Shown piece by piece: positions 1 to 42,457 of a stretch of 64,000 nucleotides of DNA. Position 1 is the stretch's first letter. The number at the start of each line of letters is the position of its first letter. Under the pieces are notes generated by a model, which did not search any database, was not told the DNA's origin, and saw nothing but the letters and a program-made list of their open reading frames with translations. A program made the translations under genes and the position numbers. The stretch spans positions 62,001 through 126,000 of the forward strand of contig QPGO01000127.1 in NCBI GenBank assembly GCA_008632985.1. The letters are read 5' to 3'. This stretch comes from Psammoneis japonica (taxonomy: Eukaryota).

Positions 1-905
1 TTTTGCTTGCGGACAACGCGATCTTTGGGTTCAACAACGCGCGAGCGAGCGTCACCGAGATTCGCTGGACACAGCCGAACACCGAACACCGACCGACTGC
101 AGAACGCCATCTCCGACGACCGACCGACCGACGTCATCGCTCATTGTGTTGTGAGTGACAGCGAAACAACAAAACAATGGAAGGGCCATTGCACTCCGCA
201 CGTCCCAGGCATCGTCTCTGGCACTTCCCTTTCCTGCTGTGGTGTCTCTTGTGTTTTGTGCCACAGAACTCCTCCTTTCACACATGCACGACTGCTGCAC
301 CCTTCTTGCGGTTTTCTCCCCGGCCGTGCCGCCGCCAACTCAACTTTTGTTGATCATTTTGGGATCCACCACACCTGCTAGAAAGGTTGCACCACAGTGT
401 CCCCTACGTCAATGTCTGCTGCCTCTGCATGGTGACAGCTGGCTCGCGAGCAACTCTCTCCAAAACCTCCCCAATCAACTGGGCAAGCCCTTTGGCTCTT
501 TCTCTGTCTGCAGCATCACACCTTTCACAGCACTGCCCCCAGCAAAGCTACCCATCTTGCCAGGGAATTGTCCCACATCAAGAGCCAAGCCCCTCCTTTG
601 CAAGTCTGCTGACTGCACCATCACCGCCTGCACGTGTGCTGCAGCTGAGGGCCCAGTGTGTCTCCTGAGCTGCTGCGCTCTCACCTCCCTCTCCTCCATG
701 TGGCAGCTCCCCCACAAAAACCCCCTCACTGCCCAGTTCCTGCCCTTGTTGGGCAGAGGGGATGGGCTCTCTCTCTCTCTCTCTGCAATCTGTGATTGTT
801 GGCAATTGATGCGATTGTTTGCAGTTGATGTTCTGTTTCTGCATCCATCTTCAGTGCTGAGTGCAATGATGGCAGATCTCTCACCAGTGGCACCTGCCAC
901 TCTCT
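1..905. mobile_element. Unclassified degenerate repeat tract (TpA-depleted), truncated by the window edge
   Basis: Almost no TA dinucleotides and many overlapping Cys/His-rich, Tyr-poor spurious ORFs; normal composition resumes at ~905. Contains a (CT)n microsatellite at ~767-784. No recognisable protein domain. Confidence 0.45.
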
Positions 906-1412: not shown

Positions 1413-2247
1413 TTAAAACAGAAACAGCGGTGTATTCTTGTTCATCTGCGGCACCAGTTCCGTCCGACCTTTTGACATTTCAGTTTCAAGCTGAGACTTG
1501 GTGAGTCCTTCGTCTTGAACGCGAAAGCTCAAGTACATGACCGTCACGATGCCTCCCGAAAGGGGAGAAATGAAACGCTCAAGATTGTCTGAAGCACAAT
1601 CCAGAGGCCGTAAAGGTTTGCTTAGCATTCAAGCCACCGAATACCACCACATTGATCGCAAAGATCGCGATGATCATGACTGCAAGGATACCAAGAGAAA
1701 AGCAACGTTTGCCTTTGTTAGGGCAAACGACCGGCCAAGACTGGACATGGCTGAAGCGTTTTCAATCATGACTGCTTCTTTGAACATAAAGCCCGAAACC
1801 AACACGATAACACCAGGAAATAAAGTAGGAGACATCCAATCATGATACCAATCATGTACACGACAAACGCCAAGAGCATGGTACAGAGGCGTTTGAGTCC
1901 TAGCTTGAGACTGCCGCTCCAATCTGGCTCTTGACGAACATAAATGGATCCAACGACACGGGGGTATGCCCACCCATAATCATGGCTCCGGTATTTTCCA
2001 CCACCATGATAATTGCAAAAGGAATCCAGATATTCTTGTTTGTGATCCACATGGGGTCATAAAGTCGACATCGGCCAGGACGGACCCATCATGTGAGAGA
2101 AACAAGCCGGACGACCGCCATTGGGACCAGAATGGTCAGACTGATTTTCATAAAGGTAGCAAAACCATGGCGATATACAGCAAAGGCCCTTTGGAACGTT
2201 TCGAAAAAGCCCAGAGGCTTGAACCAGTCATTCTCTTCCATGTTCAT
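1413..2247 (-). CDS. Multi-pass membrane protein of unknown function, split by several frameshifts
   Basis: Consecutive hydrophobic ORF pieces 2089-2358, 1766-2050, 1674-1973 and 1413-1628 read as one protein (MNMEENDWFKPLGFFETFQRAFAVY...VMIENASAMSSLGRSFALTK...VMYLSFRVQDEGLT). Confidence 0.55.
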
Positions 2248-3292
2248 GTTGTTTGGTGTTTTGTGTGAACGGCGGCGTGATGCTTCTATTCCCATGCATG
2301 TTTTGCGCCGCGTTTTCAGTCGCGTTTGGGAGAATCTACTGTATACCACAACATCCATTCATGGATATAAATAAAAAGGTTTCCCGCCACTTCGAGTCCC
2401 TGGCTGCCACCTGGCCTGGTGTCGTAAGTTGGAACAGCTGCCGGCAGGGTTAGAGGCAGTTTTCGTCGTGCGGACAGACAGAGTTTCAGTGTACAAGAAG
2501 CACTGACGATTGTGGACAACGTGGCAAGTTTACGTTCGTAACTAGGATTGAGTTGCGGGTCTTGTGCTCACTTTTTAGCTTCTGCACCCAGTTGACATGT
2601 GGCAACGAGACAGCTGCTGGTGACATCAGTTGATGACATGTTTGCAAGCCAAGCGGCTAGAGCGAGCAGCAGCAAGCCGCGAATTTCCAACACAGAAGCC
2701 AAAAAAGTTGTGGCACAACACTCAAAGCAGTGGTGTCATTCAAGGGCTGGGGAAGTTGAGAGGAATCCACAGAACAAGAGCTGGGAAGTTGAGAGGAATC
2801 TGCAAATGAGGGCCGGGGAGTCAACAGGGGTCCCCAAAGGTGTGCCGCGTGTCGGCAGATCGCAGCAAACAAGCCGGGTGGATGAGGGCAAAGAAACAAT
2901 TTCTGGCGTGCTTTGCTGCCAAAGAAGCTGTTGAGGTTTGCTGAAAGAGGGTGCAGCAAGGTTGTGTTGGGGTTGGTGAGACAGATGGCTTTGTGCTCTG
3001 GTGTGGCGCTCTTGTCTCTTTCACTGCCTGTTCCACGCACATGAATTTTCGACAATGCACGCACGCATTGCACCATTGCTGTGGTGCCCCAACAACAGGG
3101 TAGACTTTGGTGGCATGGCAGCAAGAGTGCTCATGCACACGCCTGTGTGGGGCCTGCACTTTTTGCCAATGCATTCCTTGCTTTTCCAGCACATGTTGAG
3201 CAGATTGCTCCACAACAATTTGTGCTCAGTGCTGATTCCCTGTGTCTCTGCTTGCAACATGACCCTCACTTGTTTCTCCTTTTTTCTTTAAG

Positions 3293-3461
3293 TTGCGGAC
3301 TGGCAGTGTTGGGACAATCTAACGGATGTCTAGGACAGATGACAATCGTGCACTGGATGAGAAAGAAAGTGAGCAAAGGAGAGATCATCGGATCTCTCCA
3401 TGCTGTCCATGCCAGTCTGTCCGACACAAGGGAGTGTGCTCCCCATCTCGGATGTCTGTCA
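3293..3461 (-). repeat. 3' LTR of the Copia element
   Basis: Direct repeat of 10116-10286 (14 substitutions plus one 2-bp indel by manual alignment); begins TGACAG on the minus strand. Confidence 0.93.
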
Positions 3462-3470
3462 CCCTCCCCT
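3462..3470 (-). promoter_or_regulatory. Polypurine tract (PPT)
   Basis: AGGGGAGGG on the minus strand, immediately 5' of the 3' LTR. Confidence 0.85.
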
Positions 3471-3629
3471 GATGAGCAATGCAATGCTCAACAAGAAAGA
3501 AAGAGACGATCCAAATAAAAAGAGAGGACCAGAATGGCAAAGAACAAAACAAATGAAACAGAGACACACCCAAGACTCAATCCACAACAAACCCGACAAC
3601 AATCAACGGCAGTGTCCCATCAAGCGGCG

Positions 3630-4152
3630 GGCATGGCGGGAATGGAGCATTCAACCCACGGCCTTGGTCAGCACATCAGCAGGGTCAATGACACCCGGGA
3701 CATGTCGAGTGACAATCTTGCCCATGTCACGCCAGTCTTGGATGGCAAAATGTTGAACATCAATGTGACGAGATCGCTCCGCAGGCACCTTGTTGTTGAT
3801 CATCTGGATGGCAGAGGAGTCATCAATGTGCAAGGGAGCAGGATCACGTTGGGGAAAACCCAATTCTTCCAGAAGTTACAGCCGCGAGGAACTCAGCTTC
3901 CATGGAGCTGGTGGCGGTGATCGTTTGCGCGTGGCATCGACAGTCAATCGCAGCACCAGCAAGGACATGCGCATGGCCAGCAGCAGAACGGCGACGCCAC
4001 AGTTCATTGCCATGTGCCGCATCAATGAATCCAAGAAGTTGGAAAAGGTCAACAGCACAAGGAAAATCCAGGAGAGATGGGTCATCCTTGAACCATTCAA
4101 AATCGCGAGGAGGCAGGCCGGGATCGCGTTTGGACTTCTTGCAGGTCAGTCC
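3630..4152 (-). pseudogene. Copia RNase H region (disrupted)
   Basis: ORF 3651-3863 carries IDDSSAI...ERSRHIDVQHFAIQDW...PADVLTKAVG, the Ty1/Copia RNase H C-terminal motifs. Confidence 0.85.
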
Positions 4153-6924
4153 TCAATGTTTGGCACGGCACAAATGCTTGGCCATGCGCTTGAGTGAATC
4201 ACAATGGAGCTCAGCCGGTGCCTTGGAAAACTTGGACAAGGTGACAATGGGACATCCAATGTCCAAACGACAACAGGAATGGGCAAAGACCAATTCACCC
4301 AAGACAGAACGATGCGAGAATCCTTGGGACTCAGCAAGAGTGTTGTGCTCGGGTGCACCCTCTTCAGGACCTTCAGTGGCACACAGATCAGGAATGCAAT
4401 CAACCGGAACAGGTGCAGCCTTGAAATCAGAATCAGATTCATGTGCAGCGGGAGTGTCCCAACCATGGGTCTTGAAAACACGGTCAAGGCAGCTGGCAAC
4501 GTTGACAGTGATTGAGTCGTCATTTTGAATGACATCAATGCCATTGAATTTGGCAACCAAGCCCAAACACTTGAAGGGAGGAGTGTCCTCATTCTCCATC
4601 TGGAGAGCCCTGCCAACATGGTCGTAGATCTCTTTCGCAATCTTTTCAGATGGACAAGCAAGAGCAAAATCATCAACCTGATGAAGGAGGAGGACCTTGA
4701 CACCATCACATTCACCGGAACAGACACACTTGTCATGAGCAGTGTTGCGGAAAAGAAGTTTTGCACCCGTGAGAATCGAGTTGATGTGCTTCTCCCAGAG
4801 GACACCAGCTTCAGGATGGCCTTGAAGAGCATGCTTGAGCGGGAGAACACAATGGCGGGGTGCTTTCTTGCCAAATCGTTTTTCACACCAGGCAGCACAT
4901 GCATCATCAACAGCAACAAAAACCGGTTGGGATGGGCCAGGAGAATGAGCACAGGCATCCCGTGCATCACCGCCAAAGACACGATGCGACACAGCCGCAC
5001 TGAGAGCGAAAAACATCTTTTCGACAGAACGTTCCACACACGATGAATGGGTGGAAGTCAACTCATGCAAGGCCGGCATTGCCGACTTGGAACCATCATC
5101 ACATTGTCGGGAGCGACGTTGGCCATCCGGCTTTGCCATGTGATCCCAATGCGGACGCATGACATTCGCGCCAGGGGGACGTGGTTGCAGAGGACCACAC
5201 ATGCCCAGGGCACAAAATTGGTCCAGTTGACGCTGCTCGCCTTCTTCCCATTCAGGCCATGTGTCAAGTTTGTGAAGCTTGGCACGGGTGAGATGGTCAA
5301 GAGCAGCTTCCTCTGGAGTGAGTGAGCGAGAGCCAATCGCACCGAGATGTGCATAAAACACATCCGCAGGGACAGCCTCATTGGAAAAATCATCATCAGG
5401 ACAGAGAAGAGCCGCAACAGATCGCACATCCTCCAAAGCAAGTTCAGGAACATGAGAGTCGTCCTCCGTGGAGTCCGGCTCAAATGACTCCGCTTCCTCA
5501 AATGCCTTGTTAAGAGTGCAAGAATCCAATCGTCGTTCCGGCACAAAAGCAATCTCGAAAGTCGGAATTTTGTCATGAAAGACCTGAGATGAGGCCTCTT
5601 CAGCATACGAAGGAGTAAAGACTTCACGCTTGTTGACAGAGACAACACATGCACCCACAATCTTGTTGCGAGTGGCACGGAGGGAAGAAAACAATGAAGC
5701 GGCAGGACTGCGCTGCTTGATGTCCGACACATGGACACAGTCCATTGGCGCACACTGAGAAAATCCAAAACCACAAGTGGGGTCCTTTGGAGGACGTTTC
5801 ATGGTGCATGCAACAGTCGCAGCAAATGGATTTGACGAAGACGCAAACATGGGAACGGTGGTGTCCTGTGTTTCAGCTGGAAAAGGCTGACCATTTTCCA
5901 CACGCTGTAAATGGATGGCATTGGGAGGGAGTTGATCCAAAAACAGGTCATTCGTGCCTTCATCGCAGCGCACATGCTTGGCCGTCTTGACTTTGTCAGT
6001 CTCAGGATCCCACCACACAACATTCTTGAGGGTGTTGGGAAGGCAACCAAGGAAGACACCCTTCTTGGAATTGGTCCGGAAGGCAGCAGAATGAACAGTG
6101 GACCGTTTGGACCACACTCGACATCCAAAAGTCTTCAGAGCAGCAAAATCTTTGACCTTTCCGGCAGCAAGAGTGACAGGTGCCGCATCTTGTTCTTTTG
6201 CAGGAGTGGCATTCTTGGTGCGGAGGCAGTGGTAAAATGCATGGGGCCAGAATCGGATCGGAAGGTTGGCACCAATTAAAATCGCATGAGTCGCATTCTC
6301 AACAGTTGAATGTGAGCGTTCAACAGGCCCACATTGGTTGGATGCGCCAGCGCCAGAAGGACAGATGTCATGCTGGAATTCTTGTGCAAAGAGGTCACGA
6401 ACTTTGGGGTTTTTGTACAATTCCCCACCTTGGTCCACAAATGCATGTTCATCACGACAATTCGGTGAATGTCGATCCAAGAATCGGCGAAGCCACTTGT
6501 AAGGACTGGCCTTTGAAGCCCTCGCTGCACCATGGAGCATCCACGTGTGATGATCACAGACAGCAATCCAACATGTTTCACCATCACATCCAAGACAGTC
6601 AACCTTTGGAAGTCTGGCCAGCAAAAGCAAAATCGACAGTGAGACCTTGGTGTGGTTGGGTCGCCTTCCGAGTCGTGTTCGGTCCAGCAGGAGTCTTGAC
6701 TTGCTTGGCTTGGATGCACGCAGGGCATGCATCAAGGACGGGATTAGCATGACAGAACTTGGGGATGCCCTTGATGTGCTTGTGAGCATTGTGCAAGCAG
6801 TGATCACTGGGGTGTCCAAGGCGTTGATGCCACAGAAGACGTTCAGTCTCAACCTTGAGAGAGCGGATGGGAGCAGGGGCAGACAATGGAGCCGAGTCAC
6901 ACTGCATCGAAAACAGCTCAGCAT
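4153..6924 (-). CDS. Copia pol: GAG-pre-integrase, integrase core and reverse transcriptase (hypermutated, probably non-functional)
   Basis: LWHQRLGHP (in overlapping frame 6599-7240), VDQGGELY, QCGPVERSH, FWPHA, KTFGCRVW, KKGVFLG, LKHALQGHPEAG and HQVDDFALA (RT catalytic motif). Confidence 0.92.
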   Translation of the reverse strand: MLSCFRCSVTRLHCLPLLPSALSRLRLNVFCGINALDTPVITACTMLTSTSRASPSSVMLIPSLMHALRASKPSKSRLLLDRTRLGRRPNHTKVSLSILLLLARLPKVDCLGCDGETCWIAVCDHHTWMLHGAARASKASPYKWLRRFLDRHSPNCRDEHAFVDQGGELYKNPKVRDLFAQEFQHDICPSGAGASNQCGPVERSHSTVENATHAILIGANLPIRFWPHAFYHCLRTKNATPAKEQDAAPVTLAAGKVKDFAALKTFGCRVWSKRSTVHSAAFRTNSKKGVFLGCLPNTLKNVVWWDPETDKVKTAKHVRCDEGTNDLFLDQLPPNAIHLQRVENGQPFPAETQDTTVPMFASSSNPFAATVACTMKRPPKDPTCGFGFSQCAPMDCVHVSDIKQRSPAASLFSSLRATRNKIVGACVVSVNKREVFTPSYAEEASSQVFHDKIPTFEIAFVPERRLDSCTLNKAFEEAESFEPDSTEDDSHVPELALEDVRSVAALLCPDDDFSNEAVPADVFYAHLGAIGSRSLTPEEAALDHLTRAKLHKLDTWPEWEEGEQRQLDQFCALGMCGPLQPRPPGANVMRPHWDHMAKPDGQRRSRQCDDGSKSAMPALHELTSTHSSCVERSVEKMFFALSAAVSHRVFGGDARDACAHSPGPSQPVFVAVDDACAAWCEKRFGKKAPRHCVLPLKHALQGHPEAGVLWEKHINSILTGAKLLFRNTAHDKCVCSGECDGVKVLLLHQVDDFALACPSEKIAKEIYDHVGRALQMENEDTPPFKCLGLVAKFNGIDVIQNDDSITVNVASCLDRVFKTHGWDTPAAHESDSDFKAAPVPVDCIPDLCATEGPEEGAPEHNTLAESQGFSHRSVLGELVFAHSCCRLDIGCPIVTLSKFSKAPAELHCDSLKRMAKHLCRAKH

Positions 6925-7246
6925 CCATCAGCAAGGGATCAGATGGACCTTGTTGGACGTTGATGAAAAACACTGCACGTTGACATGCATCGTCAACATC
7001 ATCAACCAAGGATGAGTCAGGGGTCGTCGATGTCGAGGGGACACCAGACGGAGATGGAGGAATCAGGGGTTGTGTGAACACCTTGCCATGTCGAAGTGCA
7101 CCATGGACAACCACCGCTTGTGCATCAGTGGAAGCAGTGCAAGTGCAAGTGCCATCGGCACATGTCTTCTCAAGGAGCTTGGAGCGAATGGACTGAGATT
7201 TGAAACCAGAAGCCCGCGCAAAATCACGTTCATCAATCAAAGTGGA

Positions 7247-8229
7247 TCATGGACTGGGATGGTAAAAAGTGCGCATGAGAAGAAAGCCTTCAGGGTTGTC
7301 TGCAGGTGCCTGCAGGCATCCAAAGCCATGAGGAACCGCATCAGAGCCTTCAGCAGCCGGAAGCATCTTCAAAGGGCATGGGTCATCTGGTCCAAAAGGA
7401 GCACATGTGTGGAGGAGGTTCTTGTCCCCTGTGCAGGATGCCCAAGCACCAGCATCAATCTGTGCACGATGTGTCGTTGAATCACGAAGCACATGATTGA
7501 TGGGAACGACTGGGGCAGTCAAGGATGCAAAGGTCGCAGGTGACTCCGGGGGAGAAAAAATCGGGGAGATGCGCACGGCACTGAGAGGCGACAAGTGCTG
7601 GGTGTTAGTCACATCAAGACACTCAAATGGTTGGTCCTGATCAGTGGACAATGGAGTGTCAGCATCCAATGCAGGAGGATCGAATTCCCTCCCCTGATTG
7701 TGATTGCCAGGGTCATCATCAGGAATCGTCTTGGGATCAGGAGCACCAGCCTTTGTCGAGCTCGAAAGAAGGGCAGCAAATGAGACAGGTGAAAGAGGAG
7801 GATCAGCGGAAGGTGACAAGTCATTTTGACCCTCTTTCACAGTTGCCCCGCTAGCAGGAGTTTTCGGATTGGAGGACAATGGGCAGCATTGTTTGTCCGA
7901 ACATGACAATGGCCCCAGGAAAAATCCTTCTTGGCCGTGCCAGACTGAAGTGCATCACGAGCACGCTGGTCACGTTGAAGAAACTGGGAGAACCGAGTGA
8001 GATGGGTGCGCAGGTGCTCAGCATCATTCAACACAGGACACTCATGGAACAAGTGGTTGTCACCACAAACAACACATGGACGGTTCTGTGCAATGGCAGG
8101 CGAGGACTTGATCCTGCAGATGCAGGCCTTGTGGACACCGTGGAGGGCTTGTGCATCATCATCTGGAGGAACATCCACAGTGGCAAGTTCATTTACAAAG
8201 CACTCCACAGTTTCCGCAGGTTTGTCCAC
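7247..8229 (-). pseudogene. Copia gag zinc knuckle and aspartic protease region (frameshifted)
   Basis: CVVCGDNHLFHEC (CCHC knuckle) in ORF 7837-8229; AQIDAGAWASCTG (protease D-x-G-A motif) in ORF 7247-7909. Confidence 0.75.
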
Positions 8230-8670
8230 AGGAGGAGAGTCAGATTCCTTGGGAGAGTCTTCAATTGCTGGAGGCGGAGCAGAAACTTCATCCTGGGGGA
8301 CCGCAGACAGGAGCTGCGAGAGGAGGAGGAGGCGACAACGTGGAGGACATTTGGGAGGGTCCTTGACACGCAGAGCTGGACTGTCCGGTTCCTTGAGAAT
8401 GGCACTGATGGTTTTGACAATCTTCTTCTGGGTGAACTTGTGTTGTTGGGTCTTGTCTTCCCGGGCATCCGCTGTTTTACGGTGAAGGCACTCACCACAG
8501 CGGGCATTGCTGAGAAAAATGTCAAGCTCACCAGGGTCATCAAGAGATGCACCAACATTGGAGATGACAGCTCACAGCTGAAGGCAGTCTCTGAAAAGAG
8601 CACAATGGCCAAGGACCGTGAGGTTGTTTTGGTGCGGGTGGCTCTTGATCAACTCATGCGGGCGCTTCGT

Positions 8671-9912
8671 CTAAATCGGCAGAATGTCAAAGAGAATCAT
8701 CTTGATGGCTGCGTGTCCATCACCGTGACATTGGCGAACAATGTCAGGGCACTTGGAGTCTGTCGGAAAAATTCCTTTTTTCTGAATGTGCTGGAAGACA
8801 GTCAGTTTCATTTGGTCAAGTGGTGCCATCATCCGGAGAGGCAGATCATCGGTGGGATCATTGCCACAAGTGAAACCCCAATTTCCACCATCCTTGACAA
8901 AACACCACAGAGGGCGCATGTGTGCACCACAAGCCGAGGCTTGTTGGGTTGCAGCAATGCACCATGCATGGATTCCTTGAGGGGAGATGTCATCACAAGT
9001 GAGATGATCGCGAAGGAATGATTTTGCATCCCAGTCAGTGCGATGAACAAAGAGTGAGCCATCAGTGAGAATGAGACGCTCAGTGCCATCCTCGCAACAA
9101 AGGTTTCCAGACTTGTGTGGTGCCAGGGATTTGCCAAGTGCTGCTTTCCCAGCTTCCTTGCGCTGACAGCGGGCCAGCACATCCTTTGGAAGTCCTTTCG
9201 GATTAAAGGTGCACACAGCACTGGCAGCAGTCAATGAAGAAGCCACACCAGCAGCAGTCATGGCAGACGGTGCAGGAGACAACACCTTGGGAGCAGAGTT
9301 CTTCAATGCGTTTGTCACGGCTTGCTCAAACTGTTTTGGACCAGGTGAGTGAGCAGCCAGGGCCTTGGCAAAGTCCTCAGGAGTGGGACCTGTGGCAGCA
9401 ACTGGTGCAGGTGCAGAACTCAAAGCAGTCGGTGGATCCGGGTGCGGATCATCAGAGATGTCATCCCAGCAATCACAATGTCGAAAACGAGGGATGAAAT
9501 GGAAACGCAGAGTCCCAACATGCAGATGCATGGTGTCGTCGTTCTCTGAAATTGCCTTGATCACAGTCTTCTGAAGAGCACTGAGGTTCAGACGAACCGG
9601 GGGGCCTTGAGGAGCAGCCACAAAGAGAGGAGCCTTCTCAATGATCGGTCCAATTCGTGCAAGACCCTCAGTCTGGAGAGCTTCAGGGATGATGAGATTC
9701 TGAACAATCTTGTGTCGAAGGACAGCAACAGCGTCGCTCTTGAGGCCTTGAGGGGTGAATCCATCCAAAAGATCTTCAGGAGCAGGGATCTTGTCCGAAC
9801 AAAGAGCATTCAGGAAAATGTGGGCATCGGGCATGCGATCATGTGGGCTGAATTCAACCCGCATTGTCTTGATCTTGGTCAAATCGACGGCGTTTGGATT
9901 TTTGTTCACCAT
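8671..9912 (-). CDS. Copia gag N-terminal region
   Basis: Long ORF just downstream of the 5' LTR/PBS (ATG at 9912, MVNKNPN...). Assignment is by position within the element. Confidence 0.7.
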   Translation of the reverse strand: MVNKNPNAVDLTKIKTMRVEFSPHDRMPDAHIFLNALCSDKIPAPEDLLDGFTPQGLKSDAVAVLRHKIVQNLIIPEALQTEGLARIGPIIEKAPLFVAAPQGPPVRLNLSALQKTVIKAISENDDTMHLHVGTLRFHFIPRFRHCDCWDDISDDPHPDPPTALSSAPAPVAATGPTPEDFAKALAAHSPGPKQFEQAVTNALKNSAPKVLSPAPSAMTAAGVASSLTAASAVCTFNPKGLPKDVLARCQRKEAGKAALGKSLAPHKSGNLCCEDGTERLILTDGSLFVHRTDWDAKSFLRDHLTCDDISPQGIHAWCIAATQQASACGAHMRPLWCFVKDGGNWGFTCGNDPTDDLPLRMMAPLDQMKLTVFQHIQKKGIFPTDSKCPDIVRQCHGDGHAAIKMILFDILPI

Positions 9913-10105
9913 GGTTGCGCGGGAAAAAAAATTAAATTCCTGTGCAGAGCTCTGGCATGTGTTCTGCGGTGGTCGTTTGATCACAAATCGAGAGGTGAAA
10001 AAACAGCTGTGACAATGATGACGATTTCAACGAAGAAAAAATCGCCAAATCACACAACAGGCGTTGCAACAGAGGAGCACAGAGGAAGAGGAACAGTGCA
10101 CTGCT

Positions 10106-10115
10106 GCTCATGACC
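10106..10115 (-). promoter_or_regulatory. Putative primer-binding site (half-tRNA-iMet type)
   Basis: GGTCATGAGC directly after the 5' LTR resembles the GGTTATGGGC PBS of Drosophila copia-type elements, with one TA->CA change. Confidence 0.55.
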
Positions 10116-10286
10116 TTATGGACTAGCGGCATCGGGACAATCTAACGGACATCTGGGACAGATGAGACAATCGTGCACCAGATGAGAAAGAAAGTGAGCA
10201 AAGGAGAGATCATCGGATCTCTCCATGCTGTCCATGCCAGTCTGTCCGACACAAGGGAGTGCACTCCCCATCTCGGATGTCTGTCA
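10116..10286 (-). repeat. 5' LTR of the Copia element
   Basis: Direct repeat of 3293-3461, flanked by the TSD copy TCAAG. Confidence 0.93.
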
Positions 10287-13200
10287 TCAAGTGCCTGGGT
10301 GTTCCAGGCTCTTTTGCCTTCAGTGCTCTGTCATCCTTGAGAAATCATGAGGCATGTTCTCCAGCTCCAGGTGATGATGAGCTTTTCATCATGCAAGATT
10401 TTCCATGCAGTTTTCAGCACCAGACAATCTTGTCTCCACCCGGCAGAGCTCACACTTTTTGGCTTTTGGTGAGCAACAATTGTTTTCATGTTGTTGTGCA
10501 TTTGTGACAAAAGTGCATGTCTGCAACAACTAAGGTGCACATTTTGTCACAGAAAAAATGGCATCACTTGGCATTCAATGTTTTTCTGGTGATGCACAGA
10601 ACAAACAATGCTGACTTCCATGAGCTCATGTGCCGCCCCCACGTCAAAAACACCCAACACACAATGTCAGCCACAACATCAGCCACAATGCAGCACACTG
10701 CTGTCAGGTCTGGTGGGCCTTGACATGGAGCCTCACGAGGAAGAAGACAGCTGCTGCTGGGACCAACAAAACAGATTCAAGCAAGCCAGTCAATTTGTCT
10801 TCATCTCAGCCAGCAGCAAGCAGAGTGCAGCACATGTTTTGTCCCTGTTCAAGACATCAGCTGAAAAGTGAGAACTCTGGAAATTCTGGAGCAGGAGAGC
10901 TCTTCAAAAAAAGCTCTCATGGTTTCTAAAAGCTTTGGGGTCACACGCCACTCTCATGTTTGGTCAAATGATTGTTTTTGTGAGGGAGCTTGTGCCGATG
11001 GAAAATGTGACAACATGCAGCAATCGGATGACCTCAAAATCTTCAACCAATGCCACAGGCTTCCCGTTGAAGCCAACAAAAGCACACACATGGAGAGCAG
11101 CATGCAAGACACTCCATTTGCCCTTGCCTCAATGAGAAAGTTGCCACTGCAATCATCATCTTGAATGAGAAGCATCACATGGTCAACAAATGGAAGCAAA
11201 TGACAGACAGATGGACTTTGTGGCATGGACACTGCAGCACTGCACAGGTGGGGGCCAGCGGGCGGGGTGATGGAGCAAGTGGAGCAGAGTTTGAGATGAC
11301 ATTGGACTTGCACTTGTGTTTTGGGTTTTGGACCATGTCCAAGTCCCTCACTCCTTCCAATGGCATGTCCAAACTCACCAAGAAAGCTCTTCCAAGCTTT
11401 CAGCTTGAGCTCCTGGTTTTGAAGCATGGGGATCTCAGTCACCTGGCATGGAAGAGTGGATCTGTGCCTTGCAACCCTGAATGTCTTCATGTGATCAACG
11501 CCTCAGAATTTAAGAGTCCTCAGTTCAACAAAGACGAAGGTTCTGATGCTGTTGTTTCTGATGCCTTGCTGCCCATTGACTGGAGGAACCCCGTTTATGA
11601 TGAGGATGACAACAGGTTCAATCTCAAGAACAAAGTTCACTTGCCACTTTCACGGGCGCTCAAACAGAATTGCAACATGACTTTCTTGCATGATTGCAAC
11701 AGCTGCATTGTGGCCGGTGCTCAGGACACCATGGTGGTTTCTGCAAGTGAGCTGGAAACTCAAGTTGTTTTTAAAGAGAAGAGCAAAAGCCTCACTCAGC
11801 ATTTGTTGGGTTCAGTTGGCACAACCTTTCCCCAAATTTGCAAGTCTGGCCAAGAAGCATTCATTGAAGGAAGACCCATGAAAACCAACACAGCTGGATT
11901 CTCTTGTCCTCTCATTCTTGCCCAGCTTCTGGAATGCATGGCAGCTGAAGCTGCTGCATGCAGTGTCATTGTCACTTCTGGATGAGCTTGCTTTGTTTGG
12001 GTTGAAGTGGGGCAGGAGCAAAATGGTTGCAAAGAGACACCAGCAAAGAAGCAAAAAGGCACAAAGAAAAAGGTTCCTGCATTGGCAGTTTCAAGTGAAG
12101 CAACAATGACAAGTGGCGCGCACTTGACCAAATCCATCAAAATTGATGACGCTCACTTTCTACATGTCATGCACAACTTCACATTTCAGACCAAGGAGGG
12201 TTGCATGATGGACAAAGGATTGACAGCCACCAAACTGCTGAATGCCCCCTCTTCAAATGGAGGGTTTACCCGAGGTGAATCACAAGACAACAAACCTCAA
12301 ACAAGAAACCAGCTGACATCAGTCAGGTGCCTGATTTGTTCAAGCAGTGGTGTTGCAACTTCTTTGCCAGGTGCGAGGTGATCTGTGATCTCCAGGTTTC
12401 CGCTTGTTCCTTGTTTGTGCAAGACAAGAGTTGTTGCCAAAACCTTGGGTCAAAACAGGGAAGGTCAAGTGCCGGCTGCAAATTGGAGCAGTGTTTCAGC
12501 TGCGGCAAAGGTTGTCAGCCTCTGGAACAATGTGCGTGAACAAATGCATGCACGATGTGTTTTTGAAGGTGAAGTCAAAGCCTCTGCAAATTGGCTGGAC
12601 TGGCTGGTCTGTGGGGCTTGGCTGTCCCACAACCCACAACCTTTCTTTGCAGCAACGGATGACAAGCAGTGCATCCCTTGTGTCCAGCTTTGGGTGACCC
12701 AATGCCACTGGATCCCAAGATGTGGACCACTTCTGAGCTGAGACAGGTGACTGAGAGTGCTCTTCTTCTTTTTGAAGCTGGCGCTGAGTTGAGTGACATC
12801 AAACCTGCCAACTTCATTTGCATCACCAAATGCAATGTTGTCAATGCATCACAGTGCACTGAAGAACAAAGGGTTGTTGCAGTTGAACTCAAGCAGCTTT
12901 TCATGGAGGCAGAATCTGACTGTTTGAAGCTCCCAGAATGGATGTTTGAGAAAGCAAAAGCAAATGCTGTGTCTCCTGGACAATGGACTGCTCAACCAGG
13001 ATGTGTGCTCCCTTCCACACACCAATCAGTTGTCAAGAGAAAGGAACAACTGAGCTGCAATGACCTCTGCACACAAGCCTTGTGCAGGTGCAGCTTCAAC
13101 AGCCACATCTTCTTTGTCTTCACTCATTGCAATGAGTCCACTTGCAGACGGGTTTGCAGCTGTTCTTGTGCATGGATCTCGATTGTCATTTGCCATTTCC

Positions 13201-14502
13201 ATTTCTGATTTGAGCATGACTGGCCAACCCTGCATGCAATGTGCTTGCAGTTGCAAAAGCACTGAGTTCAAATTTGAAAGACAAAGGTTTGAAATTGTGC
13301 AACAGTTTTGACCTTGTCATTTGTCCTTCACACTTTTTTCTTCATGTGGCTCTCCATTGACTTTTTGACTGACTGCAAAGCAAAGCCACTGCCCCTTCCA
13401 TGATGGGGCTCTGTTCACAAAGACTGGGGTTTTTGCTGGCTTCATCTGTGAGTTGCACTTGCCCACTTCCTTGCAACCACACTTGGCATCAGAACAGCAC
13501 GAGAGTGAGAGTCCCCCAACGGGAGCCATTTTTGCCAAATGATTCCAAGTGCTCAGAATGACTGTCTGTTGTGGCACAGCAAAATCACCATGAAATTTGT
13601 TGAGCTTGCCAAAAAATGACAACTCTCCTCCTTTCACACTGAAAAGTGACAAGGTGAGCATCTCCTGGAAAACGCCCCGCACCAGCCACGCCACACCAAA
13701 GCCCAAGAAGTGCTGTGTGCTTGGTGCTGTGCTTTGCTGATCATTTGATGGTGGCAGCCATCAAGAAGCCACTGTGGGTGCACCAATCATCACACACAAT
13801 GGTGTGCATTCATTTGCAAATAATGGAAAATTTCTCAGCGGCCCTGCCCGCCGTTGCACATTGCTGAGCAGCAGCGGGCACTGCCAACCATTGTTGCCAC
13901 ACCCCTTTTTTGACACAAACACACAAGCCAGCAGCACCCAAAGCATCACTGTCATTTGTGTGACAGCAACAATGTGTCTTGATCACACATTGCTGCCAAG
14001 TGAATGTGATGCATTTGACACCAAAATAACGCGAGTCATTGTGGCCCAAACACTGCAACGTCGTCACGCTCAGCTCGGAGCTCGAACTTTTTGGAATTTT
14101 AATCCTTTATCCAACTTTGAATATCACTAAAACACCAAATTTGGTTAGCATCTCCGTTGTGTTACAACATACTAGTCTTCACGTAAATAGAATCCAGTAG
14201 GACGTCTACAGCAACGACAAAAATGGCAAACCACACGAAACTCCACACGAGTCGTCACACGAGATCAGTGACTGTGCCCAGGCATTCGGTATGGAGGGCA
14301 TCATTTCTGGCCCCTCTTTGTTGCAGCCCTCATACTTTTGGCTGGAGACACAAACTCAGGAAAAGGAAGGGGGAAGGAAGAATTCGTGCACGATTGAACT
14401 GAGCTGTGTCATCCAATCGCTGTTCCCGCTTTTCTATTCCAGAAGCCGCGGAGCAAGACAGAGAAATCGAAAAAAGAGGACGGCACTGAACGATACTGTA
14501 GA

Positions 14503-20529: not shown

Positions 20530-21760
20530 CTTTTCGGTGAAGCTGCCGCTGAGTTGGGGTCTGCAATGTGAGCAAGATGCTCGAGGTGGAATCCGCTGGC
20601 CATTTCATCATCTGTGTGTCTTCAGTGTTGATCTTCCAAACTTTGCTGTCAACACACACATGCCATGAACAATGCAGGTGACAGAATCTAAGATGTGTGC
20701 AGTGACAGTGCATTGGACACCCAAAAAATTGAGTTGGAGATCTGGTCAAAGATCTGTCTGTAAGTTCATGTGTGCCTCTCATGCAGGTGGAGGGGATGCC
20801 AACACCCTCCCCTGACATGCCATCTTCCCAGCAACATGACAAAACACAAAGCACAGCATCCCAAAAGAGAAAAAGTCAGACAGCAAATCCAAATGTTGCC
20901 AGGAGTGTTGAAGAAGAGGTGCACAGGTTTGGGGGGTTTGTGCCAGCACACATGGCTTGTGCCAGGATCATGCCCAGCGATGCGTTTTTTGCAATCCCGA
21001 GCCGGCCACACCACTGGCGCCAGATGGGTTCCAGCCCCAGGTGGGGCTTTTTGTGACATTGGGCCCGCAGAATTCTGCGTGCGAGCTCCTCAGTAAAATT
21101 GTTGAGCAATGGACATGTGAATGATCGCCAACAGAAAAAGAGGCAATTTTGCGAACGCATCTCCTCCTCCACACTTGAAGTGCATTCTTTGCAGTGTGCC
21201 CAGGTGTGTTCTTCAGACATCAAAGAACACACCCAGCGCATTTTTGTTGACACAAATGCAGACAACAGAAAGCCTTTGGCTTCACAAAACAGGCAGTGTG
21301 GAACAATTTTTTACAACAAAACACGTAGAAATGTGCGTGCAAAACATGCGATGGATGACAAAAAAATGATTGTGTCACAGTTCAGTGGTGTGAGATCCCA
21401 CCTGCAGCTGGAGCACGTCGCCACACCAGAGAAGAGTCGCAAGAGCAGAGGAAGGGGAACAAATGCTGTTCACACCCCCTGGGAACCCACACACATTGGC
21501 TTGATGACAAAATGCACTGTGATGTTGGCTCCAAAGTCTCTTGAGGACATTCTCGCCACACAAGAACAAGAGGTGTGTGTGGGGTGGTGGGGGCGTCTCA
21601 TGAGGCATCGTTGGTTGAAAGGTTGCTTTTTGCGGCGGCTTTGCAAGACAGTCTCCTCTGCTCATTGCCTTTTGTTCGAACATTTTTTGAGCAAAGCAGT
21701 GCCGATTTTCAACCGAAAATGTCATTGTCATCTCTCATTAATTTTCTGTTGCAATGAGGT
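20530..21760. mobile_element. TpA-depleted degenerate repeat island containing a nested MITE
   Basis: Local loss of TA and CG between the bestrophin and HSF genes; contains the MITE at 21023-21419. Confidence 0.55.
21023..21419. mobile_element. ~400-bp MITE, copy 1 (4-bp TSD GCCA)
   Basis: Imperfect ~24-bp TIRs (GATGGGTTCCAGCCCCAGGTGGG...CCCACCTGCAGCTGGAGCACGTC); GCCA at 21019-21022 and 21420-21423; colinear homology with 24383-24782. Confidence 0.85.
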
Positions 21761-23340: not shown

Positions 23341-23468
23341 TGTGAAATATCTGCTCGGGGACTAGTTTGTTAATAAAGTTTTAAGCTGTTTTTACATGAA
23401 ACACTGTTGCTCTTATTCCTTTGAATCACACAACGCGAGATCGAGATTACTACAGCTTAAATCTCTAG

Positions 23469-24973
23469 TGTGAAAGCCTCACAAACTGAATCGCCTCTTG
23501 GTGAAGAGACATGTCATATCTCGTTTACGGGATAATGATTTGGTACATCTGCCAGGCATTCGTACAACAAAGAAGTTGATGTCACTTCAGTTATCTCGCA
23601 TGGAATTCACCAACTGTTCGAGCTCATTCAAACTCTGCCAAGTCTTTTAGATCCATCACTCTCTGCGCAGCGACATCAAAATCCAGCTTCGCGATTCGCG
23701 CGACGATAAGTGAAATGCAGATGACGACATTGGGGGGGTTCGCATGGGCCTATACTTTGGAGCGAAGTGAAAGATGATGTGGACCCAATCGCCGCGCGCG
23801 CACACATTGGGGGGACACGTCAGACACCAATGTGAAAGCCGTAGCCTCACAAACGGAATCGCCTCTTGGTGAAGAGACATGTCATATCTCGTTTACGGTG
23901 ACAGGACAATGATTTGGTACATCTGCCAGGCATTCGTGCAACAGAGAAGCTTGATGTCACTTCAGTTGTCTCGCATGGAATTCACCAACTGTTCGAGCTC
24001 ATTCAAACTCTGCCAATCTGTCAGATCCATCAATCTCTCTGCGCAGCGACATCAAAGTCCAGCTTCGTGATTCGCGCGATGACAAGTGAAATCAGATGAC
24101 AACATCAGGGGGGTTCGCACAGGCCCATGCTTTGGAGCGAAGTGAAGGATGATGTGGACCCAATCGCCGTGCGCGCACACATTGGGGGGGCATGTCAGCA
24201 GTGTGAGAGCCTCACAAACTGAGTCGCCTCTTGGTGAAGAGACATGTCATGTCTCGTTCATGGTGACAGGACAATGATTTGGCACATCTGCCAGGCATTT
24301 GCACAACAGAGAAGCTTGATGTCACTTCAGTTGTCTCACATGGAATTCACCAACTGTCCGAGCTCATTCAAACTCTGCCAATGACGGGCTCCAGCATTCC
24401 CAGGTGGGACTCCGTGTGACATTGGGCCCACAGAATTCCACGTGCAAGCTCCGCAGTGAATTTGTGCTGCAATGAAAACACAAATGATTGCCAACAGAAA
24501 AAGAGACAATTTTGCGAATGCATCTCCTCCTCCACGCTTGCAGCACATCATTGATGGTTTGCCCGGGTGTGTTCTTCAGACATCAAAGAATGCACCCAGC
24601 GCATTTTCATTCTCACAAATGTTGAAAATAGAAAGCCTTTGGCTTCACAAAACAGGGAGCATGAAACAATTTTGTAGAGTGCGACACACAGAAATGCACG
24701 TGCGCGACATGCGACACGATCCAAAAAACTGTTGATGTCACAGTGCAGCAATGCGAGGTCCCACCTGGAGCTGGAGCACGTCCAATCTTTTAGATCCATG
24801 ACTCTCTGCACAGTGACATCAAAACCCAGCTTCGCGATTCATGAGACGACAAGTGAAATCAGATGACAACATTGGAGGGGGGTCGCATCGGCCTGCACTT
24901 TGGAGCGAAGTGAAAGATGATGTGGACCCAATCGCCGCATGCTCACACATTGGGAGGGGACACGTCAGACACC
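23469..24973 (+). repeat. Three tandem copies of a ~365-bp unit; the third is interrupted by a MITE
   Basis: Copies start TGTGA(A/G)AGCC at 23469, 23831 and 24202; copy 3 resumes at 24783 after a 400-bp insertion. Confidence 0.92.
24383..24782. mobile_element. 400-bp MITE, copy 2 (4-bp TSD CAAT)
   Basis: TIRs GACGGGCTCCAGCATTCCCAGGTGGGAC / GTCCCACCTGGAGCTGGAGCACGTC; CAAT at 24379-24382 and 24783-24786. The empty site (CTCTGCCAATCT) is visible in tandem copy 2. Confidence 0.92.
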
Positions 24974-27900
24974 CAGCAACTTGTCAAGCCCCCGCCCACT
25001 GCCACATGCGCACCACCTTGCCCATGCTGCATGTGTTCCCAGCATGTGCAAATGCATCTTCAATCAGATTCAAAAACACAGCTCATGATGAGTGGGATGG
25101 GATGTGTCCCACGCATGAGTTTTGGGCATGTCCCTCCAGCCACCTGCTGCAGCTGGTGCTGGTGGGTGTCCAGGCTGTCACATCTTGTGGGGGGATGAAC
25201 TTTTGTTTTTAGGCTGGCAGCACCACGTCTGGAACCCCGCTCCCAACAAGAGCACAGCAAGTTGCAAGAGAGATTTCTCAAATTGCGCAGCTGATTTTTG
25301 CGTGCATTCATGAAATTGCACTCCTGCAACATTTAAACTGAACATGTTTCAACTTGCGTGTGGCCAATCTTTTTTGCATTTTAACATCACAAGCTGACCA
25401 GCCAAGACCCACCTGCCCTGTTTGAAGAATTCTTCCCATTGCGCGCTGCTTCATCAAACAAACAACTTGATGTCAACAACACAAGCTGGCAGCTTGGAAG
25501 AGTTTGAAACCATTCCAGAAGAGCGAGAGCCACACAGCTTCTTGTGTGAAGCCCAAAACATGACACAGGCAGCAACTGGAGAGAGGCTCCCACCTCACAC
25601 TTTTTTGTTCCACCCCAAGTGCTCTCCAGGTGGGGCACATTGACGCGCCATCAGAGCTGGGCATTTTTGAACAAAGACAGGCATGGCACAAAATTTGCTT
25701 GACATTTTTGCACAACAAAAATCATGTTAGAGAAACACTGTTGTGTGGCACAGTTGACACAAGGAGAAAATTGCTCACACACTGGAATTTGCCGCAGTGA
25801 GTTTTTTGGCCATGCTGAAGAGCATGTGAGTGGACCTTGGCCTTTGAGCATGGTGGCATCCAGCCAACAATTGCACTGCAAAGCTTCCGTTTTTTTGTTG
25901 TTTCAAATGTGCAGCTGCTGCTTGTTCTGGGAAACAATTGCCCCAACTTGTCAAAAAAGAGTGCAGCCCAGCTGCAAAGCAAGCGACGCTTGTCATCCAG
26001 CAGCTTGGCTTTTGTGCCAACAGCCTCAGCAGAAGTTGGCCAAAAAAAATGCAGACAAGTTTGGCAGAAATTGGTGGGAAAACAAAAAAATGCAGACAGC
26101 TGTGACACAAGATGAAGCACTGGGCATTTGCAAGGCAATGACTTGTTTGCAAGAGCAGCAGATCTTGCTTTCCTGGTGCTCTGGGTGAGACCTTGTGGTG
26201 CTGGGCCGTGGCAGAACTTTTTTCACATGCTGCACAAAAGCCACGCACATTCCTGCATGCATGAGCACTCTTTTGAAATGTTGTTCTACACACACAGCAT
26301 TTTGCAAAACCAACAAAATTTTGTTTTTCAATGATTTCCAACAGCAGAATCAGGCTGATCACTGACTTCAATGTTCAGTGTCTGAAGAAAGCAACTGAAA
26401 CACCAGAAATGACACAATCCAGGCATGAGCACTTGAAGTCAGCTGCAAAATTGCACCCTTTTTTGTTGGGAGTTGCTGGCCCACTCCTTGCCCAGTGGGC
26501 TCTGAGCAATGTGGAAAACTGCAGATTTCTGCATGTGAGCTCTGCACTCTGCAGTTCATGCACCAGGTGATGAGTGCATTTGTTTTTGACATCTGAGCAA
26601 ATGACCAAGCTTGCGGTGCATTGTTTGTGCCTCTCAACACTCAAAGAAGTTTTTGGAAGTCTGCCTGCATTGTGCAGCTCTGCTGTCAAAGGTTGTCGAG
26701 TTGATTGCCCAATGACTGTGCTCATTTTTATGAGCTCCAATTTGCAGAGAAGTTCACTGTGAGATCTGCTGCATTTTCACATGGTTTGTGCCAATTGCTT
26801 CACAGGGTGACATCATTTGACATCCCCGCCAAACTGTTTTTCTTTGGACACAACACATTTTTGCTGGACAGAGAGAACTGTGGGCACATTTTGCACAGCA
26901 CACAACTTGCAGATTGTTGTGTGCAGGGGTGCAGAGACAACCTTTTGGCAAGTTCCACTGCAGCTGCGCATGATGCAGCCAAGCTGACAGGCAGTGCACC
27001 TCGCTGGTTGATCAGGGGCAGTTGTGCTGCAAAACAATGCAAAATGTCATCAAAGTCATGTGGTGTGCAGAAGTGCATGTGCGCGACACATGGTGCATGA
27101 CAAAAAAGTCAAAGTCAGAGTCAGAGTCAGCGGTGTGAGGTTCCACCCAGAGCTGGAGTGCACTGCCCAGCAACTCTTCTGCAGAGCTTGCACACAGAAC
27201 TTTGTGGTCCTGACATCACAGGGGATGCCTCGGCCCACTTGCATGTTGACAACACAGACTGCACTTGCCAGTGTGGGTCCAATGTGGCACAGCTGTCGTG
27301 AGGTCGCATTGTGGGACCAAAAGAGATGCTGCACAAATTGACCAACAATGAAAAAACATTGACGATGCCTGCAACATGTTCCTGTGCTCAACAACAAGAA
27401 AATCAATGAACAGCAGCCACAATTTTTGCGTTTGTGGTTGCAATTTCCACAGACACCCCATTTGCTCAAACTTTGACCATGCTTCTTTCTGTTGTGCTTG
27501 CTCATTTAAAAGTCACACATCTGGCATTTTTCTGAAAGTTGTTGGTGTTCACAGATTGCAGCTGTGGCTGCATTGAATGTGCAACGTCTCATTGTGTGAA
27601 GTTTCATCTTGTCAAGAGTGCACTCATTTGGTTGGAAGACCTTCCATTTGATTGCCCATTGTCTGCATTTCAGGGTGTTTCTTCTGCACTTGTCTTTCTT
27701 TGCTTTGTTGGACACCACACAACTTCTTGTCTGCCAGCCCATTGTTCCAGCAACAATGGTGTGCCTTTGCTGCAACCTGGTTGCATGTCTCACAACAACA
27801 ACAAGTGTGCTCTCCAGATGTGTGCTCATCTTCCTTCTGGCTTGGCCTCAAGATCTCCCAGCCATTCCCTTGACTTGGTGGGCTCTGATGGGCTCACATC

Positions 27901-33900: not shown

Positions 33901-34200
33901 TGTTTGTTGAAAAAGAGAGCCGGGGGGAGTGCAAAAGCACTCCTCTCTCACCACTGCAAGACACAACAAGGGGGGTGTCAAACATCTTCCCAAAAACATC
34001 TTCACTTCCTCAAGCAAAAGTCTTTCAACCTGTGTCTGTTTTCTTACCTTCACAATCCAGACTGCTGGCTTTGGCTTGTGGTGTGGCGCCTGCGCGATTG
34101 GTGAATGCGCGAGACAGCTGGAAGGTGTCGAGATGCAACGGGCGCGCGCGCGCGGGGCCGAGCGATGAATTTTCGAAGAATTTCTGCGGCGGATCAAAGC
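24974..34200. mobile_element. Long, heavily degenerate unclassified repeat tract depleted of both TpA and CpG
   Basis: About two dozen TA dinucleotides in ~9 kb by eye, few CG, and an excess of TG/CA. Only short Cys/His-rich spurious ORFs. Confidence 0.6.
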
Positions 34201-39761: not shown

Positions 39762-40380
39762 TCTTCAAACTATCTTAGATTATTGTTACTGCGCTAGGCC
39801 GTTTGCCTTGTTGCCATGGTTGAACGCACTTTGGAGTGAAGTGGTACCATGGGGATAATAATTATGCGTGAGATTTTCGCAAACGCGATGCACTCGTGGA
39901 TTCATTACGGAGAATGGACGTTGAAACGAACGTACGTCGGATTTTCTCCGCAATGTTACTTAGGGTTGGATTTTCTCCGTGCAAAGTTAGTTAGGGTTGG
40001 CTTACCGATTTCCATGTGCATCACTTTTTCGGTTAAATCGAAGAGCAGGTATTCAGCATTCGTTTAACGCATGGATAAGAGAATCTAAAAGAACTGTCTA
40101 TTCCACGATCAGTTCAAGGTGGATCTGGTACAAATGACGTGGTGTCGAGAGATTGTCCAGTCAAGACTCCTTTGGAAAGTTCTCAATCAAACGTTTTACA
40201 CGTCGTTCAACTTTTCTTTATAATAGGTCATTGATGACGCCATGCGGCTTTGTTTTTGGATATCTTTTTGTCTGTATACGTTGAAGGGTGTGGTTGTCCA
40301 TTCCACGTTGAGATGACGCGGTGTATGTCAAGAGAATGTCCGTGTCAGGACTCGGAAAATTCTCAATCACGAGTTACATA

Positions 40381-42364: not shown

Positions 42365-42457
42365 TAAGAGTTCAGCGCTGATTGCTGATTGCACCCGCAC
42401 TCGCGCGCTGGGGATGCGAGTGATGTGAAAACTAATGGCAACATACAGTATTTGTTT

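Follow-up and report, generated by a model that had tools for sequence, protein, structure and literature searches.

The diatom Psammoneis japonica carries a minus-strand Ty1/copia retrotransposon (3293–10286) in a 64,000-nucleotide stretch of its genome (GenBank assembly GCA_008632985.1, contig QPGO01000127.1, forward-strand positions 62,001–126,000; hereafter the window, numbered from its own first letter). The dinucleotide TpA has almost vanished from this element and from several other islands of repetitive DNA around it. We propose that mobile-element islands of this diatom, which are putatively silent, very probably undergo a post-insertion, chromosomal hypermutation that converts A:T to G:C specifically at TpA. 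In the proposed process, each TA would be struck once, on either strand at random, to become TG or CA, and would then no longer be a target; RTAY sites (R, purine; Y, pyrimidine) would be lost earliest and YTAR sites latest, and the process would continue until hardly any TpA is left. Tyrosine codons would become histidine or cysteine codons, and TAA and TAG stops would be removed. Ordinary decay of CpG to TpG or CpA would run in parallel, more slowly and independently, probably via 5-methylcytosine. In the copia element, TA sites would already be nearly saturated and CpG partly lost, a state that would explain every substitution between its two long terminal repeats (LTRs) and the single difference between the copies of its target-site duplication (TSD).

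The LTRs form a direct repeat (Table 1). Because the element lies on the minus strand, the right-hand copy, 10116–10286, is the 5′ LTR, which corrects an earlier note made on this DNA from its letters alone. Global alignment leaves 169 aligned positions, with substitutions at 14 of them, and a single 2-bp indel, a GA that only the right copy has; the earlier note had counted and placed these correctly, and every example it quoted is present in the sequence. All 14 substitutions are transitions (P = 0.003, assuming a transition share of 2/3), and all lie within pyrimidine–purine (YpR) steps, to which 80 of the 169 positions belong (P = 2.8e-5 for random placement), whereas none of the 89 non-YpR positions differs. 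Read left/right, the differing steps are TG/CA (four), TG/TA (two), and TA/TG, CG/TG, CA/CG and TG/CG (one each). Three differences involve a surviving CG, and five CpG are intact in both LTRs. Given TA ancestry at the TG/CA and TA/TG sites, we read 11 of the 14 differences as probably TA-derived and three as CpG-derived. The raw divergence of 14/169 (8.3%), with no change at any non-YpR position, bears out the expectation that LTR dating would overestimate the age of this insertion.

The TSD has diverged in the same way, reading TTAAG at 3288–3292 and TCAAG at 10287–10291, as had been reported. These 5-bp copies agree at four of five positions, and a random pair of 5-mers agrees at four or more with a probability of about 0.016 by simple arithmetic. 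The element sits within an older island, and the DNA that bears the TSD is old repeat DNA, not unique host DNA. The TSD was put forward as evidence of mutation outside the element; the difference is real, but it carries less weight than claimed, the flank being an old repeat island. The broader claim, that mutation occurred after integration and on chromosomal DNA, is upheld by the LTR and TSD differences together with the loss of TA and CG in the flanks, in a tandem array and in a long interspersed nuclear element (LINE)-like element.

The tandem array straddles the left edge of an island (island D in Table 1). Its first unit lies outside the island and retains TA, whereas from about 23919 onward all TA has been lost. 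Between unit 1 and units 2–3 there are 33 transitions and five transversions, among them ten TA sites changed to CA or TG, along with CpG losses. One site reads GTAC in unit 1 (23562–65), GTGC in unit 2 (23936–39) and GCAC in unit 3 (24301–04); the change therefore took place in situ, after the array had formed, and independently in each unit. In the island-side units, a preceding A also accounts for several A-to-G changes (three at A[A]T, others at AAA and AAG), and a preceding G for one (G[A]C); very few complementary T-to-C changes accompany these non-TA changes, although the numbers are small.

These observations bear on the idea that an RNA or cDNA intermediate was edited before integration by an ADAR- or APOBEC-like enzyme. 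An A-to-G change with a preference for U or T on the 5′ side is ADAR-like, and edited retroelement copies are reportedly known in animals. Editing of an intermediate is nevertheless very improbable here: both LTRs were copied from a single template but disagree at 14 sites, the TSD copies differ, DNA that is not retroelement (the tandem array and the old flanks) is affected, both strands are equally struck, and a 3′ G is the least favoured neighbour. The earlier argument against such editing, made from the LTRs and the TSD, is strengthened by the GTAC/GTGC/GCAC site.

The ancestral state can be read from protein conservation. Nineteen columns of the pol alignment have tyrosine in at least 80% of 29 diatom homologues, and the window copy is altered at 18 of them (eight histidine, eight cysteine, one methionine and one phenylalanine). 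At 16 of the 19, a TAY codon is now CAY or TGY, and tyrosine content has fallen to 0.6%, compared with 3.5% in the homologues. The order of histidine and cysteine along the element forms no clear runs (16 sites, too few for a test). Among all changed conserved columns (n = 143), one step from TG or CA to TA restores the consensus at 30, one step to CG at 11 and another single transition at 23; the remaining 79 are not restored by any single transition, which is expected when identity is about 50%. At the site at 10165, where one LTR has CTGG and the other CCAG, contigs from a public run of the same organism have CTAG. By these comparisons the direction of change is firmly from TA to TG or CA.

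The same evidence addresses the possibility that methyl-CpG decay alone acted and that all TG/CA-discordant sites were once CG. CpG is indeed depleted in the islands (observed/expected (o/e) ratio 0.18–0.58), and the three LTR differences with a surviving CG fit such decay. As a complete account it is hardly credible. It leaves the island TpA o/e of 0.03–0.08 and the converted tyrosine codons unexplained; TA ancestors are seen in the tandem array and in family copies; the four TG/CA sites would need loss of CpG in both LTRs, yet five CpG are intact in both; and CpG loss is no higher in copies that have lost TA (see below). The earlier note had held that its reading would fall if every TG/CA site were ancestrally CG; the CAY or TGY codons at tyrosine columns and CTAG in other copies instead point to TA.

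The public-run contigs also bear on whether the pattern could be a base-calling or assembly artefact at modified bases, such as N6-methyladenine or 5-methylcytosine read as G or T. Modified bases can cause such transitions in some long-read base callers. An artefact is extremely improbable, since the contigs are letter-for-letter identical to the window over TA-free stretches (2956–3335, 10674–12297 and 12927–14100, with no differences) at a word depth of 27–53, the same signature recurs in unrelated metagenome assemblies, and copies differ at TA/TG/CA sites in a stable, copy-specific way. The run, from which 3,666 diverged copia-family pieces were aligned, may be the assembly's own source, and two further public runs gave almost no cover of the window. 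The 40 best-supported variant rows were so selected that all other copies agree at them, and they reveal little about TA sites.

TA loss is organized in islands. In a 1-kb profile of the window, 27 kb have a TpA o/e of 0.1 or less and a TG + CA o/e of 1.5–2.1; four islands are strongly depleted and one further region is partly affected (Table 1). The islands hold 65 TA in 23,238 bp, compared with 1,399 in 35,110 bp of control DNA, and within them TpG and CpA o/e values are 1.5–1.9. The genic remainder of the window has a TpA o/e of 0.59 and a CpG o/e of 0.94. The islands contain the copia element, the LINE-like element and repeats, and host genes are spared: TpA o/e is 0.5–0.8 around the genes for Duc1, HSF, importin, HDAC, 5′-nucleotidase and a Cys/Met enzyme. 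Edges are sharp, to within tens of bases. At the right end of island B, isolated final TA at 13821 and 14027 are followed by a dense run from 14100, where the neighbouring genic DNA has its first TA cluster, and at the left end of island D a TA at 23918 is the last before 24629. This island-wise distribution with sharp edges is plain from the profile of the window.

The LINE-like element looks like an earlier stage of TA loss. It has an RVT_1 domain in a 1253-codon stop-free frame and a strongly skewed composition (C 39%, A 15%), and a single RTAY-type TA is left in it, versus 426 in the 35.1 kb of control DNA. TA loss also removes stop codons: over 2658–14027 and 23918–33900, the counts per kb per strand are 1.43 (versus 8.36) for TAA and 0.66 (versus 8.60) for TAG. 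Long stop-free stretches appear in all six frames, including 924 codons at 4153–6927 on the minus strand, and 39 frames of at least 80 codons lie across the 7-kb copia element.

Table 1. Coordinates of features in the window, with composition where determined (o/e, observed/expected)
Feature	Position	Strand	Description
Island A	1–905		TpA o/e 0.07, CpG o/e 0.58; cut by window start
Island B	2658–14027		Holds the copia element; comprises left flank, copia and right flank
Island B, left flank	2658–3292		TpA o/e 0.08, CpG o/e 0.38
Left TSD	3288–3292		TTAAG, TA retained; read directly
copia element	3293–10286	−	TpA o/e 0.06, CpG o/e 0.58
3′ LTR	3293–3461	−	169 bp; begins TG on the minus strand directly after the polypurine tract
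Polypurine tract	3462–3469	−	GGGGAGGG on the minus strand, directly upstream of the 3′ LTR; read directly
Dead pol region	3612–7840	−	Protease, integrase, reverse transcriptase, RNase H; three frame pieces, breaks near 6600 and 3862
Stop-free frame	8671–10026	−	451 codons; gag position
5′ LTR	10116–10286	−	171 bp
Right TSD	10287–10291		TCAAG, TA changed to CA; read directly
Island B, right flank	10292–14027		TpA o/e 0.03, CpG o/e 0.18
Island C	20761–21739		TpA o/e 0.06, CpG o/e 0.44; solo repeat copy, also at 24399–24782 (+) and 31941–32118 (−)
Tandem array	23463–24382	+	Unit of ~368 bp, ~2.5 units; straddles left edge of island D
Island D	about 23919–33900		TpA o/e 0.04, CpG o/e 0.22, TG and CA about 1.85
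LINE-like element	57000–62062	+	RVT_1; partly affected, TpA o/e 0.20

Environmental sequences provided independent data on the same kind of element. Searching metagenome contigs with the pol alignment yielded 80 loci, most with a TpA o/e of 0.55–0.8 and eleven between 0.01 and 0.41. For a family of 52 loci anchored on one of them (L020), the majority state was taken as the ancestor, which defines 186 ancestral TA and 226 ancestral CG sites. Individual copies have lost between 0.02 and 0.99 of their TA, a loss that tracks other divergence poorly, with several species possible. In the extreme copy, L042, two of 149 ancestral TA are kept in the L020-anchored comparison (80 are now TG, 55 CA and three CG), and a 116-site count finds none of 116 kept (64 now TG, 41 now CA). 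CpG loss, by comparison, is present in all copies at 0.15–0.45 of ancestral CpG.

When five strongly hit copies were compared with 18 little-hit copies, A-to-G change after T was 11–13 times higher in the former, against 0.8–1.4 times for C-to-T at CpG, 0.6–5.2 times for other contexts and twofold for transversions; a weaker extra signal was seen at CAC (3.7 times). By the contrast between TA and CpG, the TA process is distinct from CpG decay and acts essentially at TpA only. On this point the earlier description of the differences as lying at TA/CG-type sites lumped together a fast, copy-specific TpA process and a slower CpG decay. LTR pairs in the metagenome behave correspondingly: in a partly hit element (L010), 12 of 13 differences are transitions and 11 lie at TA/TG/CA sites, whereas a TA-normal element (L001) has eight transitions and three transversions that are not confined to such sites. 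A second metagenome family (L006, L058 and L069) has the same mix of TA- and CG-type variation. In L010, the element between its LTRs is itself the TA-poor stretch (2176–10485, 5–12 TA per 500 bp), against 13–21 in the flanks; the affected domain seems to end at the element borders.

Flanking bases set the order in which sites are lost. Across 12 partly hit metagenome copies, the fraction of TA lost is 0.60 for ATAT, 0.58 for ATAC/GTAT and 0.53 for GTAC, then 0.30–0.39 for mixed contexts, and 0.23 for CTAA/TTAG, 0.20 for CTAG and 0.20 for TTAA. Surviving TA in the window follow the same order, with zero or one per RTAY class and with TTAA and CTAA/TTAG surviving best, so the RTAY preference is firmly established across these copies. 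The choice of strand is evidently random. Runs of TG versus CA in L042 number 53, with 50.9 expected from shuffles, and no clustering of hit versus kept TA sites was found in 11 loci. Strand processivity was considered and ruled out on these two results. Double changes from TA to CG are rare (three of 149 in L042).

Several observations weigh against the proposed process. At the TG/CA-discordant LTR sites the left copy carries TG in four of four cases, and in an older repeat pair, 21036–21419 and 24399–24782, it does so at nine of ten, although random strand choice predicts no bias. TG-to-CA double changes exceed what independent hits would produce; a short-lived TA intermediate is a plausible fit. 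The preference for T and C over A and G as the 3′ neighbour is a misfit with ADAR-type enzymes. The targeting and enzyme steps are argued from sequence, and the exclusion of a base-calling artefact draws on exact k-mer agreement and recurrence in unrelated assemblies. Metagenome contigs possibly mix diatom species, and the copy-specific TA loss may in part be species-specific. As an observation in its own right, the left-copy TG bias of the two repeat pairs is absent from run tests on other data.

How the proposed hypermutation selects its targets appears to follow chromatin state and not repeat homology. We infer this because the array unit lying beyond the island escapes and the island edge cuts through a unit, because the stripped right flank of island B has little related sequence in the public run, and because a hypermutated region described in the chlorarachniophyte Bigelowiella natans is single-copy. 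A homology-triggered process resembling fungal repeat-induced point mutation (RIP), whereby duplicated DNA would be recognized and mutated at TpA, would accord with the fact that all affected window DNA is or was repetitive, and diatom DNMT4 enzymes group with fungal RID in the portions of the published DNMT study available (PMC9998398). We regard such a process as rather improbable: unit 1 of the tandem array is untouched while units 2–3 are stripped, the edge lying inside unit 2; the flank at 10.7–14.1 kb is stripped despite a summed contig depth of about 35–145, compared with 1,500–2,700 over the copia element; hit sites show no strand-coordinated patches; and the B. natans region, according to the consulted text of the preprint, is single-copy (10.64898/2026.01.13.699255). 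The RIP of ascomycete fungi is alike in being a post-integration, transition-only, dinucleotide-specific destruction of chromosomal mobile DNA that inflates LTR divergence. It is opposite in direction, however, as its CpA-to-TpA change enriches TpA whereas the diatom islands lose it (o/e 0.03–0.08), and it is triggered by duplication and tends to one strand per copy, whereas in the diatom the repeat unit beyond the island edge escapes and strands are chosen at random.

The chemistry of TpA-specific hypermutation is a more tentative matter. Enzymatic deamination of the T-preceded adenine by a TadA/ADAT2-like DNA deaminase is a plausible candidate that we put forward with reserve. TadA presumably prefers a 'TAC'-like context. 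No ADAT2-like deaminase gene was found among the genes of the 64-kb window. Because TpA is self-complementary, A-to-G and T-to-C on the other strand cannot be told apart from sequence, and the data are compatible with a thymine route, in which the thymine of TpA would be modified in silent chromatin (for example, by JBP/TET-like oxidation to 5-hydroxymethyl- or 5-formyluracil) and mispair with G, giving T-to-C. Among relatives, thymine at TpA is modified in dinoflagellates (5-hydroxymethyluracil) and in kinetoplastids (base J), and mispairing with G is a property of 5-formyluracil. The thymine route is nonetheless unlikely, as the CAC signal in hit copies reads more naturally as a YAC-type adenine preference and the present analysis shows no such base or enzyme in diatoms. 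Deamination of adenine is favoured over it because of that weak CAC signal and the precedent argued for in the B. natans preprint.

That preprint describes mutation-accumulation lines in which two silent stretches of integrated viral DNA took 231 of the 302 new mutations (Mettrop et al., 10.64898/2026.01.13.699255). According to the parts of its text that were available, virtually all mutations in these regions were A>G or T>C at TpA and arose in only some lines, with a de novo rate in culture of about 1e-7 to 1e-6 per site per generation; the hypermutated region exists as a single copy and the process is not homology-dependent; TpA-poor coding sequences are enriched in reverse transcriptase and DDE domains; and the authors propose an ADAT2-like deaminase (10.64898/2026.01.13.699255). 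On the same textual basis, the diatom data agree with B. natans in the almost exclusive A>G/T>C change at TpA, giving TpG and CpA, and in its confinement to foreign or mobile DNA, in clustered windows that are TpA-poor and CpA + TpG-rich. The process is uneven between lines in B. natans and may be uneven between copies in the diatom data. The lineages differ, the diatom being a stramenopile and B. natans a chlorarachniophyte (rhizarian), as do the targets: in the diatom, islands of LTR and LINE retrotransposons together with a tandem array; in B. natans, giant-virus or virophage inserts. The extent differs too, with a TpA o/e of 0.03–0.08 in the diatom islands against 0.45 for the B. natans nucleocytoplasmic large DNA virus (NCLDV) region. 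The evidence in B. natans is de novo mutation in culture, whereas ours is comparative only. The hierarchy of RTAY over YTAR, the independence from CpG and the sharp edges come from the diatom data and are absent from the consulted preprint text, which likewise makes no mention of diatoms, LTR elements or a flanking-base preference (10.64898/2026.01.13.699255).

No account of TA loss in diatom transposons turned up in full-text literature searches, and only the B. natans preprint matches the signature. In the passages searched, the diatom CoDi paper (PMC2806351) is silent on TA loss and on transition bias, and the diatom DNMT paper (PMC9998398) on TA loss. As far as these passages extend, both papers report that diatoms methylate transposable elements at CpG (PMC2806351, PMC9998398). 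Decay of methyl-CpG is present in every transposable-element copy examined but explains only about three of the 14 LTR differences. A system of this kind has been described only very recently, in the B. natans preprint, and the diatom adds a new lineage and new targets.

The pol region of the copia element follows a diatom copia protein (P0003, 1429 aa) collinearly over residues 1–1427, in the order protease–integrase–reverse transcriptase–RNase H; in tblastn, residues 1–416 match 7840–6605, residues 423–1332 match 6600–3865 and residues 1345–1427 match 3860–3612. Pfam recognizes SH3_retrovirus (1.5e-9) and gag_pre-integrs (3.4e-8), with RVT_2 below threshold (6.1e-5, 23.2 bits versus a cut-off of 31.6 bits). 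Order and domains are those of the CoDi-type Ty1/copia elements of diatoms as given in the consulted passages, although, unlike the elements described there, the window copy is dead (PMC2806351). The named closest pol relatives are from Nitzschia, Cylindrotheca and Fragilaria, and the top matches overall reach 52% identity. Two diatom-type copia polyproteins, P0005 and P0029, are filed in the database under a 'Flammeovirgaceae bacterium' metagenome-assembled genome and are probably from mis-binned eukaryotic contigs. The 451-codon frame has no Pfam match and would be gag by its position; the polypurine tract is, again by its position, the likely plus-strand primer site, and no primer-binding site was recognized in the element. 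A k-mer search in a purine/pyrimidine alphabet and self-BLAST found no second copy of the family within the window.

Elsewhere in the window, island D contains no recognizable protein domain, and Pfam searches of 22 long frames from the old islands gave nothing above curated cut-offs, the sole match being a sub-threshold DUF7445 (E = 0.0062, 17.2 versus 27 bits) in the frame at 33434–34009 on the minus strand. Three diverged copies of one unclassified repeat, at 21036–21419 (+), 24399–24782 (+) and 31941–32118 (−), all lie in TA-free islands; the first two differ by 54 transitions and 29 transversions. In unaffected DNA, a 100-bp inverted repeat pair (40379–40478 and 42267–42366, ~1.8 kb between) is 94% alike, its arms differing mostly by transversions, and the region 40379–42366 is TA-rich (110 TA in 1988 bp). 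The host gene at 62618–63634 encodes an O-acetylhomoserine sulfhydrylase-type enzyme with 74–83% identity to diatom proteins. A fungal host, which the Duc1 and HSF domains might suggest, was dismissed in view of this enzyme's diatom matches and those of the pol protein.

Only one preprint, of 2026, describes a mutator of silent DNA that changes A:T to G:C specifically at TpA, and, to our knowledge, no natural enzyme that edits adenine in double-stranded chromosomal DNA has been characterized, which would matter if the proposed deamination is correct. For genome analysis, the process means that LTR-divergence dating is inflated, that random choices between TG and CA make family copies diverge and will split families in repeat annotation, and that the loss of TAA and TAG opens long stop-free frames in all six frames that gene finders may call as genes. 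The RTAY motif, the island edges sharp to tens of bases and the independence from CpG offer testable handles. Diatoms and chlorarachniophytes could conceivably share an old chromatin-guided DNA-editing defence, in which a natural RTAY-preferring DNA adenine deaminase or thymine modifier would erase TpA from silent mobile DNA, triggered by the silent state and not by repetition, though we offer this as speculation. If true, such a defence would span at least two branches of the stramenopile–alveolate–rhizarian (SAR) supergroup and may be widespread in marine protists. The saturated TpA-mutator footprint in a diatom genome and in environmental contigs suggests a widespread genome-defence or mutational process in a major group of marine primary producers.

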